DNA of 64,000 bases from Candidatus Bathyarchaeota archaeon (GTDB lineage Archaea > Thermoproteota > Bathyarchaeia > Hecatellales > Hecatellaceae). The position numbers and the translations under genes are program-made. Positions 5,923 through 12,316 of the stretch are shown piece by piece. The notes under the pieces are model-generated. The model saw nothing but the letters and a program-made list of their open reading frames with translations. It was not told the DNA's origin and searched no databases. Within the stretch, counting starts at the first letter, position 1; the number at the start of each line of letters is the position of its first letter. The stretch lies in NCBI GenBank assembly GCA_052246995.1, contig JBQPWD010000006.1:32001-96000 (forward strand), written 5' to 3'.

Positions 5923-7431
5923 TTGTCCATAGACAAAGTTTCTTACGATATTCTAACCGTTTTAAAGGAAAGAGGAGGAAGCTTAAGCTTTGACAATCTT
6001 AAAGAAACTTTAAATCTTGATGAATCTTCGCTTACACGAAACATTTTAAGCTTAGAGAAAAAGGGTTATGTTAAAACATTTGAAGAGAAAAAAACTTTTT
6101 ACAGTTTAACTGATGAAGGTAGAAGTTGTGTAAGTGAAGGGTTACTTGAAAGAAAAATCTATGAGGTTGTAGCTAGCCTTGGCGGAATTCTTCCAGTAGA
6201 GAATATCACTAAACACTTGGATATGCCAGAAAAGCTTATAGATGCCGCCTTAGGTTGGCTTGTGAAAAAAGGTTGGGGTAAAATTTTAAGGGAGGATAAA
6301 ACTGTTAGGGTTGATCCATCCATTAAGCCTGTTGAAGGTTTGGATGAAAAACTTTTAAAGAGAATCTTTGAAGAAAGAGAAATTGAGGATAAAAATCTTA
6401 GTAGTGAAGAATTTAAAGTTGTTTTGGAGCTTAAAAAAAGAGGACTTGTTAGGGAAAAAACTGCTTCATTAAGGTACGTCCAGTTAACTAATGAAGGATT
6501 AAACTACGTTGAAGAGGTTAAAAAAGCCGAGTTTAAACCTAAACCTGAAATCTCTATTTTAACAAGTGAAATTATTACTTCTGGCAAGTGGCGTGAAGTT
6601 GAATTTAAAAAATACGATGTAACAGCTCAGCCACCAACAATCTATCCTGGGAAAAAACACTTCTTCCTAGAGTTTATTAGGCAACTTAAAAACATACTTG
6701 TATCCCTAGGTTTTGAGGAGGCTGACGGACCCTATGTGGAGCTTGAATTTTGGAATTTTGACGTCTTATTTCAACCTCAAGATCATCCTGCAAGGGAGAT
6801 TCATGACAGTTACCAGGTTAAAAATCCAATGTATGGTGTGTTAAAAAATGAAAACTTAGTTAAAAAGGTTAAAAAAACACATGAAAATGGTTGGATTACA
6901 GGTTCTACCGGTTGGAGATATGAGTGGAGTTTTGATGTCGCCAGAAAACTTGTTATGAGAAGTCAAACAACAGCTGTTTCTGCAAGATTCCTTTTTGAAA
7001 GAAAAAAGGTTCCAGTAAAAATGTTTTGTGTTTCAAGGGTTTTCCGTCCTGATGTGTTGGATGCTAAACATGCTATGGAGTTTTACCATTGTGAAGGAAT
7101 AGTAGCTGATGAAAACTTAAACTTTAAACACCTACTTGGAATGTTAAAAAAAATTGTTAATGCGTTAGGAATTGAGAAAGTTAAATTTAAACCTGGATAT
7201 TTCCCATTTACAGAACCTAGTGTTGAGGTTTTTGTTTACCATCAAAAAATAGGTTGGATGGAGTGTGCTGGTGCAGGCTTATTTAGACCGGAAGTAACTC
7301 TTCCACTTGGAGTTAAATGCCCTGTTTTGGCGTGGGGTATAGGTGTTGATAGGCTTGCTATGGTTAGGCTTGGTGTTGACGATATAAGGGAGCTTCATAC
7401 TAGAAGGCTTGATTACCTTAGAGCAAGGTGA
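5923..7431 (+). CDS. pheS: Phenylalanine--tRNA ligase alpha subunit (archaeal long form)
   Basis: WNFDVLFQPQDHPARE, YFPFTEPS, AWGIGVDRLAM; N-terminal winged-helix extension. Confidence 0.97.
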   Translation: MSIDKVSYDILTVLKERGGSLSFDNLKETLNLDESSLTRNILSLEKKGYVKTFEEKKTFYSLTDEGRSCVSEGLLERKIYEVVASLGGILPVENITKHLDMPEKLIDAALGWLVKKGWGKILREDKTVRVDPSIKPVEGLDEKLLKRIFEEREIEDKNLSSEEFKVVLELKKRGLVREKTASLRYVQLTNEGLNYVEEVKKAEFKPKPEISILTSEIITSGKWREVEFKKYDVTAQPPTIYPGKKHFFLEFIRQLKNILVSLGFEEADGPYVELEFWNFDVLFQPQDHPAREIHDSYQVKNPMYGVLKNENLVKKVKKTHENGWITGSTGWRYEWSFDVARKLVMRSQTTAVSARFLFERKKVPVKMFCVSRVFRPDVLDAKHAMEFYHCEGIVADENLNFKHLLGMLKKIVNALGIEKVKFKPGYFPFTEPSVEVFVYHQKIGWMECAGAGLFRPEVTLPLGVKCPVLAWGIGVDRLAMVRLGVDDIRELHTRRLDYLRAR

Positions 7432-7440
7432 AATCAAAGA

Positions 7441-9147
7441 ATGCCAACCGTAAATATTTCATATAAGGATGTCTGCAGGCTGGTAGGTAGAAAGCTTAAA
7501 CTGGAAGCCCTAGAAAAGGTTTTGCCTTTAATTAAATGTGAAGTTAAATCTGTTACTGGCGAGTCTATAACTGTTGAGGTTAACTCTGACAGGCCTGATA
7601 TGTTTTCGGTTGAAGGAATTGCTAGAGTTTTTAAAGGATTTTTATCAATAGAAAAAGGTTGTCCTAGATATAAGGTTAAGAAAAGCAGTGTCACAATTAA
7701 TGTTGATGAAAAGGTTAAAAACGTCCGTCCATTTGTTGTTGGAGCCGTAATTAGAGATGTTAAGCTGGATGATGATGGATTTCAGCAGCTTATCCAGCTT
7801 CAAGAAAAACTTCATGAAACTATTGGTAGAGGACGAAGAAGGGTGGCTATTGGGGTACATAATTTTGATAAAATTAAGCCTCCAATAACTTATACAGCTA
7901 TCCCACCCGAGAAGATAGTGTTTACACCTTTAGATGGAGATAAACCCTTAACAGGAAGTGAAATTCTTGAAAAAACCTTTCAAGGTAGGAAGTATGGATA
8001 CATAATTGAAAAGTATTCTTGCTATCCTATACTTTTAGATGCTAAAAACATGGTTTTGTCAATGCCTCCAATAATAAACGCGGAGGATACAAAGGTTAAA
8101 CCTGAAACAAAAAAACTCTTTCTAGACATTACTGGATGGAGTTTTAATGCTGTAAACCAAGCTTTAAACATTCTTACTACAAGTCTTGCCGAACGTGGAG
8201 GAAAAATTGAAGGTGTTAAGGTTGTTTACCCTAGAGGCTATAAACCAAGAGTTTTTTGGGCTGGTGAGCTAAACCCAACCAGAATTAATGTAAGCCTAGA
8301 TTATATTAATGCCGTTTCAGGTTTGAATTTAAGTCTTAAAGATGCTGTTAAACTTGCTGAAAAATCACGCTTTGATGTTAAAGTTGAAAAAACCAAACTA
8401 AATTTAACAATTCCACCATACAGGTTTGATATTCTACATCCAGTAGATGTTGTTGAAGACTTGATAATAGCTTATGGGTATGATAAGGTTAAACCTGAAG
8501 AACCTAAAACATTTACAGTAGGAAAACTTATGCCTAAAACTTTATTCATGGATAAAGTTAGGGATTTAATGGTTGGCTTCGGTTTCCAAGAAATTGCAAA
8601 CTATGTTTTAACAAGTAAGGAAAACCAGATTTATAGGATGAACTTAAAAGATGAGGATGTAAAACTTATTGAACTTTTAAACCCTAAAACACTAGAATTT
8701 TCAGTTGTTCGCGGATGGCTTATTCCAGGACTCTTAATCTTTCTATCACACAACACGCATGTGGATTATCCACAAAAAATTTTTGAATGTATGGATGTTG
8801 TTGTGTTTGATGAAGAAGCTGAAACTAAAACCAGAAACGAGTTAAGAGTTGCAGCTGCAATCTGTAACTATAAGGTAAGCTATGAAGATATTCAATCCAT
8901 ACTTTACATGCTACTTAAAAACCTTAATATTAATGATTGGATTGTTGAGGAAACCACTCATCCAAGCTTTATTCCTGGAAGAGTGGCAAAAATAAAGTTT
9001 AATGGTGAAGATTTAGCAGTTTTAGGAGAAATTCATCCAAAGGTTCTTGAAAACATTAACTTACCAAATCCCGTTGCAGCTTTCGAGTTAAACTTGATGA
9101 AACCATTAAGCATATATTTAACCATGAATCAATCAACGTTTTACTAA
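7441..9147 (+). CDS. pheT: Phenylalanine--tRNA ligase beta subunit
   Basis: NSDRPDMFSVEGIAR, PPIIN, PPYRFDILHPVDVVED, GEIHP; follows pheS. Confidence 0.97.
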   Translation: MPTVNISYKDVCRLVGRKLKLEALEKVLPLIKCEVKSVTGESITVEVNSDRPDMFSVEGIARVFKGFLSIEKGCPRYKVKKSSVTINVDEKVKNVRPFVVGAVIRDVKLDDDGFQQLIQLQEKLHETIGRGRRRVAIGVHNFDKIKPPITYTAIPPEKIVFTPLDGDKPLTGSEILEKTFQGRKYGYIIEKYSCYPILLDAKNMVLSMPPIINAEDTKVKPETKKLFLDITGWSFNAVNQALNILTTSLAERGGKIEGVKVVYPRGYKPRVFWAGELNPTRINVSLDYINAVSGLNLSLKDAVKLAEKSRFDVKVEKTKLNLTIPPYRFDILHPVDVVEDLIIAYGYDKVKPEEPKTFTVGKLMPKTLFMDKVRDLMVGFGFQEIANYVLTSKENQIYRMNLKDEDVKLIELLNPKTLEFSVVRGWLIPGLLIFLSHNTHVDYPQKIFECMDVVVFDEEAETKTRNELRVAAAICNYKVSYEDIQSILYMLLKNLNINDWIVEETTHPSFIPGRVAKIKFNGEDLAVLGEIHPKVLENINLPNPVAAFELNLMKPLSIYLTMNQSTFY

Positions 9148-9223
9148 AAAACGTTTTTTAACTCAAAACTTGTGTAAACCTCCACGTTTAAGTTAAAATA
9201 TTAATTAACCAATAATTTTTTAT

Positions 9224-9351
9224 GCTGAAACCACCGTTCTCCAGAAACCCGCGGAGACGGTTCCAACCTAGTAAGCGTTCGTTCTTAAGGAACGCTATCG
9301 ATGAGGAAGGAAAAAACCCAGCCGTGGAACATGGAGGATGGTGGCAGCAAA
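9224..9351 (+). ncRNA. Putative H/ACA pseudouridylation guide RNA (target 23S U2586, E. coli numbering) enclosed in a BHB-closed stem
   Basis: GC-rich island in an AT-rich spacer. GCUG/CAGC helix flanked by AAA bulges; 13-bp stem 9231-9243/9332-9344 whose G-U pairs favour the + strand; lower stem CCGCGG/CCGUGG; ACA at 9329-9331; pocket strands GACGGUU and AACCCAGC complementary to the conserved 23S sequence GCUGGGUU-UA-GACCGUC; K-turn-like loop near the apex. Confidence 0.75.
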
Positions 9352-9359
9352 AAGTCAGC

Positions 9360-10283
9360 TTACACTATCAAGGATAAAAGGCCTCTTTGAAGGTGAAGTC
9401 TATTTTCAGCTTGAAACCATACAACAGACCATGGACCATCGATAACTTCATTAGTAACTTCCCTTCCGCGGTCAGCTGGTAAGCAATGCATGAAAAGACA
9501 ATCTTTTTTTGCGTACTTAAAAAGTTCAACAGTAACCTGGTACTTTGGTAGAAAGTCTTTAAGTCTTTTCTCCATTTCAGATTCAAAACCCATCGAAACA
9601 AACGTATCAGTATAGATTATGTCAGCATCCTTAACAGCATCCTCAGGTTCTGAAGTTAACTCTATTTTTGAACCTGAAGCTGTTGCAAATTCTTTAGCCA
9701 GTTTTAAAACTTCACTTTTAGGTTCATAACCTTTTGGACATGCAATGCTCATATCTAAACCAAATTTTGCACAACCTATAAGCAAAGACTGGCAAACGTT
9801 GTTTCCATCACCAATCCATGCAAGCTTTAAACCATTTAATCTACTCTTAATCTTGTAGATTGTTAGGAAGTCGGATAAGGCTTGACATGGGTGGTAAAGG
9901 TCTGATAAGGCATTAATAACTGGAATTGTAGTGCTTTCTGCAAGCTTAACAAGAGTTGCATGATTTTTAACTCTAGCAACTATACAGTTAACATAACGCT
10001 CAAGAGTTTTACCGGTATCATAAATAGTTTCACCTCTGCTAAGCTGGGATTCGCTCCAATTAAGTGTAATAGTATTTCCACCAAGCTGTTTAACAGCAAC
10101 CTCAAAAGAAACTCTTGTTCTTGTTGAAGGTTTCTCAAACAACAAAACAACAAATTTACCGGAGAGTTTTCTTGAAAATTTTTTAAGATTTTTCTCTATT
10201 CTTAAAGATTCCTTTAAAAATTCCCAAAGCTCTTCAACAGAAAAATCTGCTAATGTTAAAAAATCTCTACCTTTAAGATTCAA
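9360..10283 (-). CDS. argF: Ornithine carbamoyltransferase
   Basis: FEKPSTRTRVSF, HPCQ, GDGNNV, FMHCLP, QAENRLH. Confidence 0.96.
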   Translation of the reverse strand: MNLKGRDFLTLADFSVEELWEFLKESLRIEKNLKKFSRKLSGKFVVLLFEKPSTRTRVSFEVAVKQLGGNTITLNWSESQLSRGETIYDTGKTLERYVNCIVARVKNHATLVKLAESTTIPVINALSDLYHPCQALSDFLTIYKIKSRLNGLKLAWIGDGNNVCQSLLIGCAKFGLDMSIACPKGYEPKSEVLKLAKEFATASGSKIELTSEPEDAVKDADIIYTDTFVSMGFESEMEKRLKDFLPKYQVTVELFKYAKKDCLFMHCLPADRGREVTNEVIDGPWSVVWFQAENRLHLQRGLLSLIV

Positions 10284-10299
10284 GTTACTCTACCTAGAC

Positions 10300-11214
10300 C
10301 TAAAATTTACCAAGCAACTGATTAACAAAAATTTTAGGGTCAAAAGGTTGTAAATCTTCATACCCACTTCCAACACCAACAAAAATTATTGGCTTTTTTG
10401 TTATGTACGAGATTGATATAGCCGCTCCACCTTTAGCATCTGCATCCATCTTAGTTAAAATTGAAGCATCAATAGGAACATATCTATTAAATTCTTCAGC
10501 TTGAAAAACGGCATCATTCCCAGTTAAAGCATCACCTACAAAAATTACAAGGTCCGGTTTAACAACCCTAACAATTTTACGCATTTCCTCCATAAGGTTT
10601 ACATTTGTTTCCATTCTTCCAGCAGTATCAATAAGAACAACATTTATCCCTTTTGCTTCAGCATGAAAAACTGCATCAAAAGCTACAGACGCTGCATCAG
10701 AACCATAACTATGCTTAATCATTTTAACTCCAAGATTTTTAGCATGATATTCAAGCTGCTCTATTGCACCAGCCCTATAAGTATCGCTACAGGCAACAAC
10801 AACAGAAAAATTGTTATCCAGGAAAAATTTTGCAAGTTTAGCTAGAGTTGTTGTTTTTCCACTACCATTAATACCAACAAAAACTATTGTAAGTGGTTTT
10901 CTTTCCATTCTTTTTTTCTCAGCAAGTTTTAAAAGCTCAATTTTTTCTCCACCACACGTAAGAACTTCAATTAAAACGTTCCTAACTAAGTCTTCAACAA
11001 CCTTTTTCTTATTGTCAAATCTTTTAACCTTAATTTCGCTAATCTTTTTAGCTGTTTCATCGATAATTTTTTCTGCAACTTCGAATGCAACGTCGTTCTC
11101 GATAAGTGTTAGCTTAAACTCTTCAAGTAGTGGTTTAACATCCTCTTCTGAAAGGCTTGTTGTTGAAACTTTATCAATAAAAGAGTTTAAAGCCTTCTTA
11201 AGTTTTTCAAACAT
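10300..11214 (-). CDS. ftsY: Signal recognition particle receptor FtsY (NG domain only)
   Basis: GINGSGKTTT, DTYRAGA, DTAGR, TKMDADAKGG; start taken at MFEKLK. Confidence 0.95.
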   Translation of the reverse strand: MFEKLKKALNSFIDKVSTTSLSEEDVKPLLEEFKLTLIENDVAFEVAEKIIDETAKKISEIKVKRFDNKKKVVEDLVRNVLIEVLTCGGEKIELLKLAEKKRMERKPLTIVFVGINGSGKTTTLAKLAKFFLDNNFSVVVACSDTYRAGAIEQLEYHAKNLGVKMIKHSYGSDAASVAFDAVFHAEAKGINVVLIDTAGRMETNVNLMEEMRKIVRVVKPDLVIFVGDALTGNDAVFQAEEFNRYVPIDASILTKMDADAKGGAAISISYITKKPIIFVGVGSGYEDLQPFDPKIFVNQLLGKF

Positions 11215-11222
11215 ACAAAAAT

Positions 11223-11666
11223 TCACGCTTTTAAGGCGCCAGCAACTTTTTCAGCTTCTCTTCTTAAAATTTCCATTCTTTCCAGTACATTTGAAAGTTG
11301 TTGTTGAAGCGAACTTCTTACATTGTTAAGCTCATTTGCCCTACTTTCAAGGAAAGATACGGCATCTTTAGTAGACTTTTCAATTACAACACCACCGCCA
11401 ACACCAACAAGAACCCTTTCAACGTTGGAAATTTTTGCTATAACATAAGAATTTGCACCAGTAGGTATAAGAAGTTCATCACCAACCTTAAGTTTTTCAA
11501 GGTTTTGAATAGTTGTAGCAGCTATGCTAAGCTCTCTAAGCGCTGAATCCACGATTCCGATTCTAACCTGCAACTCATTACTAACGTTTTCAAGCATTCT
11601 AAGTTCAACAACAAGGTTTCTTAGCTTTTCTTCTACATCCTTTTCCTGACTATATTTTTCACTCAA
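11223..11666 (-). CDS. pfdA: Prefoldin alpha subunit
   Basis: Coiled coils flanking ELLIPTGA and VLVGVGGGVVIEK; conserved position upstream of ftsY. Confidence 0.92.
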   Translation of the reverse strand: MSEKYSQEKDVEEKLRNLVVELRMLENVSNELQVRIGIVDSALRELSIAATTIQNLEKLKVGDELLIPTGANSYVIAKISNVERVLVGVGGGVVIEKSTKDAVSFLESRANELNNVRSSLQQQLSNVLERMEILRREAEKVAGALKA

Positions 11667-11958: not shown

Positions 11959-12316
11959 GCGGTGGGTCCTAAGGCTTGACGCTCATACTACACCAAACCC
12001 CTTCAATCCTTCTCACACCCGCACTCCCCTAAGCGTCAAGCGTCCAGGTTTAGGTTGCTCCTTCCGGAGAGGTAACATGGAATACCTCTTCTCCCGGGCC
12101 TAGCCAGGTTCACCTGGTTAGATGGTTACCCAACCCCTACAGGTTGAGCAACCATCTCCGCCGACCCTAGGGGACAGGTGTTCATGGAAGGTTTTGGAGG
12201 AGTTTGATGTAGCTGTATGCGCCTCACCTTAGCTTTCGGCCCGCCGTATAGGGGGTTTGCGGTCGAACCCTTACGGGTTCTCAGGGAACCCCTAGCTCCC
12301 CGCCTAGACCCACCGC
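11959..12316 (-). ncRNA. ffs: Archaeal SRP (7S) RNA, intron-containing
   Basis: Terminal helix GCGGUGGGUC/GACCCACCGC; Alu loops UAGGG/CCCUA complementary; helix 6 with GUAG loop; helix-8 SRP54-binding symmetric loop CUAGG...AGCAACC; long helix 5. Confidence 0.93.
12062..12090 (-). other. Putative 29-nt BHB intron in SRP RNA helix 8
   Basis: Bulges AGA and AAG; central helix CGGG/CCGG (3 Watson-Crick pairs plus G.G); 7-bp inner stem AGAGGUA/UACCUCU; excision gives CUAGG-CCC-GGGA-GGG-AGCAACC. Confidence 0.75.

Follow-up and report, generated by a model that had tools for sequence, protein, structure and literature searches.

Several described archaeal RNAs invite comparison with the locus reported here. 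In Haloferax volcanii, the 5' stem-loop (SL1) of sR-h45 guides Psi2605 of the 23S rRNA, at a run of U followed by a non-U, and its 3' stem-loop (SL2) guides Psi1940/1942, with both stem-loops acting independently in vivo. Productive Pyrococcus guides combine a 10-bp GA stem with 14-15(16) nt and typically have a lower stem of 9 bp, reviews place the ACA box 14-16 nt from the target, and in archaeal sRNA genes box A lies ~26 nt from the start. For the formation of RNA ends by the splicing endonuclease, a splice site requires a bulge between two helices, and the relaxed hBH/HBh' units are used with heteromeric endonucleases. Elsewhere, an Rnl-type ligase circularises C/D box sRNAs. We found no literature on H/ACA RNAs that are circular or bounded by a bulge-helix-bulge (BHB), some of which the supplements of circular-RNA surveys might list, and none describing H/ACA RNAs of Bathyarchaeota.

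Here, we analysed a 64,000-nt stretch of a Candidatus Bathyarchaeota archaeon genome, hereafter the window, for which a preliminary description had proposed a stand-alone H/ACA-like guide RNA framed by a BHB and released as a circle. Based on sequence comparison, we conclude that positions 9224-9348 of the + strand quite probably constitute the gene of a single-hairpin H/ACA guide for a uridine of the peptidyl-transferase centre (PTC), representing the split-off first hairpin of a two-hairpin RNA, with clamped ends and in linear form.

Genomic context of the locus

We observe that the letters U-GCUG-AAA ... CAGC-AAA-A read exactly as had been described, and both the 4-bp GCUG/CAGC helix and the 13-bp stem are confirmed by sequence and fold. 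The strands of the 13-bp stem, CCACCGUUCUCCA at 9231-9243 and its partner UGGAGGAUGGUGG at 9332-9344, include two G.U pairs, G9236.U9339 and U9238.G9337, which would be mismatches if the opposite strand were transcribed, which assigns the RNA to the + strand. For this strand, the predicted folding energy is -57.3 kcal/mol (z = -5.9), a value equalled by 0 of 200 shuffled sequences, and the fold of the minus strand has a z-score of -3.0. The locus forms an island of 53% G+C, the surrounding DNA being ~33% G+C, and it is flanked by the PheRS-beta gene (7441-9147, + strand) and by a convergent carbamoyltransferase gene (9360-10283, - strand). A surrounding tRNA or rRNA exon is absent, as the preliminary description had stated, with no tRNA or rRNA found near the locus by Rfam or ARAGORN. 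Additionally, ARAGORN detected no tRNA at the loci of 11 relatives, and Rfam returned nothing relevant at the locus, whether at the gathering score or at E<=10, or at the loci of 8 relatives.

Upstream of the RNA gene we find an A/T-rich TATA-like box, a putative promoter, which together with the ~26-nt rule from box A to the start predicts a start at ~9222-9226, about G9224. This base is a purine following a pyrimidine, and with a start there U9223 probably lies outside the RNA. The upstream region of the SRP RNA gene in the window has a layout similar to that of the putative 9193-9208 promoter. The SRP RNA gene (11960-12315, - strand) is itself adjoined by an FtsY-like SRP receptor gene (10300-11226, - strand). 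A 51-codon ATG ORF, at 9222-9377 of the window, overlaps the RNA gene, and we judge it to be spurious because of the 1-2-nt indels and compensatory stem changes in homologues. The locus was present in four sequencing runs, all belonging to one hot-spring metagenome study, whose contigs are DNA-like, contain no joints and are silent on expression and circles.

A conserved RNA family in Bathyarchaeia

When 61 related genomes were searched by BLAST, clear homologues were identified in five, which are MAGs of Bathyarchaeia/Hecatellales. A covariance model, R1, built from six sequences, detected exactly one copy each in 32 of 151 Bathyarchaeia genomes and, within the organism's own family, copies in 11 of 13 genomes. 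Across the 30 aligned copies used for the conservation counts, in an alignment fitted to the model, 86.5% of the cells are paired, compared to 66% in shuffled alignments (0 of 500 reach the observed value) and 43-49% in slid controls. The lower, 4-bp upper, apical and outer stems are each 91-94% paired, with nearly every pair varying on both sides. Specifically, the clamp stem is 91% paired (11 of 11 pairs change on both sides), the lower stem P1 93% (6 of 7), the upper stem 93% (4 of 4) and the apical stem 94% (8 of 8). Several bases are invariant or nearly so, with A, C and A of the ACA box each found in 30/30 copies, ACCCA of the 3' pocket strand in 30/30, U9302, G9303 and A9304, the U-G-A that follows the apical hairpin, in 30, 30 and 29 of the 30 copies, respectively, and A9270, which precedes this hairpin, in 30/30.

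An exact 18-mer scan of genome contigs returned 64 stretches, five of which are the known archaeal homologues; the remaining ones, one from Methanosarcinales and 58 from bacteria, look like chance matches and were set aside. A scan of metagenomes returned five contigs, all of them from known species, and did not widen the diversity. Together, these copies make up a previously unannotated family of H/ACA guides in Bathyarchaeia, a large and uncultured class of archaea; no Rfam model fits the family.

Architecture of the hairpin

The reading of the element as an H/ACA-like guide, already made in the preliminary description, was strengthened by the comparison. We consider the locus to be a well-supported candidate for a genuine H/ACA guide RNA, given the covariation, the invariant ACA, the K-turn, the agreement with the spacing rules, a PTC match that is the best in the rRNA, and the protein genes of the machinery. 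The latter comprise TruB_N/Cbf5-like, Nop10, Gar1 and two L7Ae-family genes in the same genome. The only TruB_N (Cbf5-like) match, L135 (G000:C2:209284-209646), has one TAG within the matched stretch, in a 345-aa open frame, which may reflect a border effect, a split gene or read-through. The parts of the RNA are listed in Table 1.

Table 1. Parts of the predicted guide RNA and its surroundings, in window coordinates.
Feature	Position	Strand	Pairing or basis
A/T-rich TATA-like box TTAAAATATTAATTAA, putative promoter	9193-9208	+	sequence
Base 5' of the terminal helix, U	9223	+	sequence
Terminal 4-bp helix, 5' strand GCUG (central helix H of the preliminary description)	9224-9227	+	pairs with 9345-9348
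Bulge AAA, between terminal helix and clamp stem; the sole true bulge	9228-9230	+	
Clamp stem, 13 bp, 5' strand	9231-9243	+	pairs with 9332-9344
Internal-loop strand GAAAC, opposite A-ACA	9244-9248	+	fold
Lower stem P1, 5' strand CCGCGG	9249-9254	+	pairs with 9322-9327
Pocket, 5' strand AGACGG	9255-9260	+	target scan, conservation
Upper GA stem, 5' strand: UUCC, AA mismatches, CC	9261-9268	+	covariation; UUCC with 9309-9312, CC with G9305 and G9306
K-turn, non-bulged strand: U9269 (2n), A9270 (1n)	9269-9270	+	conservation of A9270
Variable apical hairpin, K-turn C-stem	9271-9299	+	stem 9274-9280 with 9290-9296
K-turn, bulged strand: G-A-U (L1-L3), G9303, A9304	9300-9304	+	conservation
Upper GA stem, 3' strand GGAAGGAA	9305-9312	+	covariation
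Pocket, 3' strand AAAACCCAG	9313-9321	+	AACCCAG pairs with CUGGGUU of 23S rRNA
Lower stem P1, 3' strand CCGUGG	9322-9327	+	covariation
One unpaired base and ACA box (ACA at 9329-9331)	9328-9331	+	conservation
Clamp stem, 3' strand, beginning directly after ACA	9332-9344	+	
Terminal helix, 3' strand CAGC	9345-9348	+	sequence, fold
A5 run (3' bulge and outer A of the preliminary description)	9349-9353	+	stable partner absent in fold

At the outer end of the RNA, the terminal helix has 4 bp in 10 of the 12 sequences of family f1 and 3 bp plus an A.C in two, and the 5' bulge measures 3 nt in all 12 (AAA, AAU, AGU or GAA). To judge from the fold, the A5 run behind the terminal helix is most likely single-stranded, either a 3' tail or a trailer. 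Within the pocket, G9259 of the 5' strand occurs in 30/30 copies and ACGG is near-invariant, with GACGG, U9261 and U9262 pairing with (GA)CCGUC of the 23S rRNA; two A residues of the pocket are spare here. The GA stem has ten levels, the two K-turn pairs included, and A9311 in its 3' strand is an extra base present in 2 of 30 sequences. At the level of sequence, the K-turn pairs are G9303.A9270 and A9304.U9269, the second being A.U here and A.G in 18 of 30 copies; the base at position 2n is accordingly G in 18 copies, U in 10 copies and A in two, with U in the own genome. From the K-turn G to ACA there are 26 nt here and 25 nt in 19 of 30 copies, a count for which a few of the other copies were mis-picked by the script at a second UG[AG], and ACA is separated from the target position by 14 stacked guide bases. 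The lower stem, at 6 bp, is shorter than the Pyrococcus-typical 9 bp, and this counts against the H/ACA reading, as do the U at position 2n, the two spare A residues of the pocket, the 26-nt distance and the helix that directly follows ACA in place of the textbook free tail. Two further readings of the same letters were rejected, namely a C/D-box reading of CUGA and GAUGA, in which box order and spacing are wrong, and a CCU/AGG helix suggested by RNAalifold, which is 58% paired, poorly supported and replaced by the K-turn reading.

Predicted target in the 23S rRNA

The own 23S rRNA carries GCUGGGUUUAGACCGUCGUGAGACAG, and the best match of the pocket in this rRNA is GCUGGGUU[U]AGACCGUCG, where 7+7 pairs can form. 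When the own 16S and 23S rRNA were scanned under the anchoring requirement that the 3' guide duplex stack on the lower stem, the top site was LSU U3078, GUGAGCUGGGUU[U]AGACCGUCG, with a score of 13.5 that was reached by 0 of 300 pocket shuffles. The runners-up were a neighbouring U (12.5) and, as the next unrelated site, one scoring 9.5. In a relaxed scan, the score of LSU U3078 was reached by 1 of 200 shuffles. With the 3' pocket strand paired as in Table 1, the target U is position 15 from ACA. The predicted target, one uridine of the peptidyl-transferase centre (LSU 3078), is well supported by these scans. We take this position to be the equivalent of Haloferax 2605 and E. coli 2586. The prediction would tie the guide family to a highly conserved rRNA pseudouridine in the peptidyl-transferase centre.

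Judging from the family as a whole, we propose that L7Ae would bind the two K-turn pairs, that Cbf5-Nop10-Gar1 would bind the 6-bp lower stem and the ACA box, and that the pocket strands would pair with the 23S rRNA around the third U of GGGUUUAGACC, which would thereby be presented at its 15-nt distance from ACA and converted to pseudouridine.

The 23S gene itself (L138 5102-8518; G000:C5) is 3417 nt long, compared to a model of 2987 positions, and an A+U-rich stretch near LSU 2100-2190 (L138 about 7210-7290) may be an rRNA intron or insertion. An RNase P RNA gene in the same orientation (L138 8641-8944) follows the 23S gene at a distance of ~120 nt and may share an operon transcript with it.

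A second hairpin and its separate gene

Upon reading the individual loci, we observe a second H/ACA hairpin ~20-45 nt downstream in 27 of 30 of them (20 were found by a regular expression), in which the pocket is formed by GAGAGAG on the 5' side and by a GUGUUAGU-like strand on the 3' side, and which also has a K-turn of its own, a lower stem and ACA. The loci that have no adjacent second hairpin are those of the own genome (G000), of a congener (G001) and L122 (G016). In G000, the second hairpin is located on another contig (C3:164741-164827, 83% identity), where it stands alone as a gene and has a clamp of its own, AAGGGG/CCCCUU (minus strand of L126, about 1490-1600), and in G001 the two hairpins are likewise on different contigs. 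The separate contigs in both genomes indicate that the two-hairpin guide is split into two genes here. The RNA would thus have originated as the first hairpin of a two-hairpin H/ACA RNA, which the genus would then have divided. The lone first hairpin of L122 (G016), from another family, may be an independent split.

The AAGAGAG of the 5' pocket strand of the second hairpin can pair perfectly over 7 bp with CUCUCUU, which lies next to the helix-69 loop, GUAAC[U]CUGACUCUCUU, on its 3' side, and guidance of the helix-69 region by this hairpin is plausible on the basis of this complementarity. When this hairpin was used in the anchored scan, helix 69 was not recovered (180 of 200 shuffles were as good), and the relaxed scan ranked the helix-69 site third, with 28 of 200 shuffles as good, which is not significant.

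In the families other than f1 (L106, L109-L112, L114, L116-L121, L123), a conserved GGCGAUGA-like, box C-like element precedes the RNA, about 25-30 nt after a TATA-like box. The two-hairpin RNAs of these families end with a ..CGAUAA-like element, and the two elements may combine into a terminal K-turn, by which the ends of the whole RNA would be tied together. Additionally, the leader of L106 (G144), CUCUCCGG, is complementary over 8 bp to the second hairpin's 5' pocket strand, CCGGAGAG, and this complementarity could mask the guide or have arisen by chance.

The clamp helix and the ends of the RNA

The ACA box is internal, as the preliminary description had pointed out, and is not part of a single-stranded 3' tail; it is unpaired within an internal loop, and the 3' strand of the 13-bp clamp begins directly behind it. 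In at least 19 of 30 copies, the 5' end is paired, over no fewer than 5 bp, with a strand that begins 0-3 nt past ACA; this count is a lower bound, as 8 copies escaped automatic parsing. In other families, a 6-7-bp terminal helix closes a three-way junction with a small 5' hairpin. The clamps of the other families and of the second hairpin indicate that a clamped ACA is a class-wide trait and not a peculiarity of this locus. Furthermore, the terminal helix occurs as GCUG/CAGC, GCUG/CGGU and GCCG/CGGC, which is covariation. The mature RNA is most likely linear, with its ends held by the clamp helix beyond ACA, and end protection and folding in a thermophile would be the simplest reading of this clamp. 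The 13-bp clamp and the terminal 4-bp helix, with its conserved 3-nt bulge, would pair the RNA ends and would not form a splicing-endonuclease site. Such a clamped ACA poses the question of how the PUA domain of Cbf5 reads the ACA.

The preliminary description had interpreted the same ends as a two-bulge BHB of relaxed form, in which EndA would cut after 9229 and 9350 and RtcB would join the excised piece, so that the guide would be a 121-nt circle. We regard this as unlikely. The 4-bp helix, the AAA on both strands and the correct BHB handedness are all present, the 5' site is a proper H-B-h' unit that is kept in 12/12 family members, and the genome encodes two EndA-domain proteins (184 and 274 aa) in the layout of the broad-specificity heteromeric enzyme, together with RtcB; in other archaea, EndA and RtcB circularise excised pieces. 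There is also no oligo-T terminator directly after the stem, and some 3' processing is consequently needed. At the 3' site, however, the interpretation falters. Helices flank the 5' AAA on both sides and make it a true bulge; the 3' AAA, in contrast, belongs to the A5 run. The proposed outer pair can be drawn as U9223-A9352, followed by an A.A mismatch, yet it is absent from the MFE and centroid folds (the centroid lacks the outer helix entirely) and involves a base that may precede the predicted start of the RNA. We searched the relatives with a purpose-written BHB finder, for which the own 23S processing stem served as a positive control and was detected as a textbook 5 + 4 + 13 bp arrangement (uuugc-GAUG-aug-13 bp ... 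13 bp-CAUC-auu-gcaaa). The homologous geometry with at least one outer pair was present in 6 of 30 copies (G000, G001, G002, G006, G009, G008) and with at least two outer pairs in 3 of 30, with none outside family f1. GCUG/CAGC and the 13-bp stem covary in relatives, as the preliminary description had proposed to check, but the BHB geometry is mostly missing from them. An outer helix of 8 bp can be drawn in G006 and G009, and one of 2 bp in G008, but the former was rejected as BHB support, since its 3' strand AAAGGGG is the 5' strand of the second hairpin's clamp, an identification that follows from the AAGGGG/CCCCUU of the stand-alone second hairpin of G000. Furthermore, members of the family differ in the length of the spacer between the 4-bp helix and the clamp of the second hairpin, which is 0 to 5 nt, and around the whole two-hairpin RNA we found no conserved BHB, only scattered weak matches; a better-looking match of this kind in L107 competes with a conserved upstream hairpin and was discarded. 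With its 3' site having no second helix, and with neither spacer nor geometry kept in relatives, the 121-nt circle is not supported, which removes an appealing, though weak, case for a circular guide made through a BHB. A search of the 100%-complete genome for an Rnl-type ligase (PF09414) gave no match.

One observation speaks for the circle. The separately encoded second hairpin of G000 and G001 has the same pattern as the first, g-CAAG-aaa-GGGG ... CCCC-CUUG-aaa-c, with the competing pairing absent in G001, and the chance of such a 4-nt match is estimated at ~1 in ten. It is conceivable, though doubtful, that after the gene split the relaxed helix-bulge ends, retained or newly acquired by both halves (GCUG-AAA...CAGC-AAA and CAAG-AAA...CUUG-AAA), became substrates of heteromeric EndA and were sealed by RtcB into circular H/ACA guides. 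If true, this would provide exonuclease-proof circular guides by a route that we found described, in the literature surveyed, only for C/D sRNAs, tRNA introns, rRNA intermediates and omega RNAs. Cutting by EndA at the 5' H-B-h' unit only, with loss of six leader bases, a 5'-OH at A9230 and no circle, is very unlikely, as is the accompanying formation of the 3' end by other nucleases. It would agree with a 5' bulge that lies between the 4-bp and 13-bp helices and keeps its length in 12/12 sequences, and with the independent HBh' sites described for archaea with heteromeric EndA; yet it would deprive CAGC of its partner, although the terminal helix covaries, and in other families a strand of the three-way junction takes the place of the bulge. 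The element follows the stop codon of PheRS-beta by 77 nt, shares the strand of this gene and is spanned by an ATG ORF, which could finally suggest a stability or termination element of the PheRS-beta 3'-UTR, or a coding function of the 51-codon ORF. We find either highly improbable, as relatives carry the element in other gene contexts and fused to the second hairpin, the 1-/2-nt indels and compensatory stem changes form a non-coding pattern, and the invariant ACA, the K-turn and the rRNA complementarity would be left unexplained. The linear, clamped H/ACA guide hence remains our preferred reading.

Comparison with known systems

Among the described systems, the BHB-derived circles of archaea (tRNA introns, 16S/23S intermediates and the permuted Thermoproteus SRP RNA) share with this locus a 4-bp helix, a 3-nt bulge and a long stem, and the EndA and RtcB genes are present here as well. 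In these circles, both bulges lie between helices, whereas here the 3' half is missing and the arrangement is not conserved.

The 159-nt H/ACA sRNA of Nanoarchaeum equitans is a compact two-hairpin RNA with two K-turns and a box A ~26 nt upstream. Only ACA separates its hairpins, and clamp helices are not mentioned for it. The Pyrococcus H/ACA sRNAs (Pab/Pf; RF00058, RF00060, RF00064, RF00065) share with the RNA reported here the 10-level GA stem, the distance of 14-16 nt to ACA and the orientation of the K-turn or K-loop. They differ from it in that no Rfam match is obtained here at E<=10, the lower stem is 6 bp and not mostly 9 bp, and there is no free ACA tail.

The likeness to Haloferax sR-h45 SL1 extends to an H/ACA stem-loop with a K-turn, a pocket, an ANA box and the UUU-A stretch of the PTC as the target. 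Additionally, in relatives the hairpin is the 5' member of two stem-loops, and the pocket of the 3' one may fit the helix-69 loop region. In contrast to sR-h45, the two stem-loops are encoded here by separate genes, located on different contigs, a long pseudoknot spacer is lacking, and each hairpin has an extra clamp helix beyond ACA. The likeness lies in the target and the hairpin order, the target positions being likely equivalents by their numbering. The locus would represent a natural split of a two-hairpin guide, which fits the independent action of the stem-loops in Haloferax.
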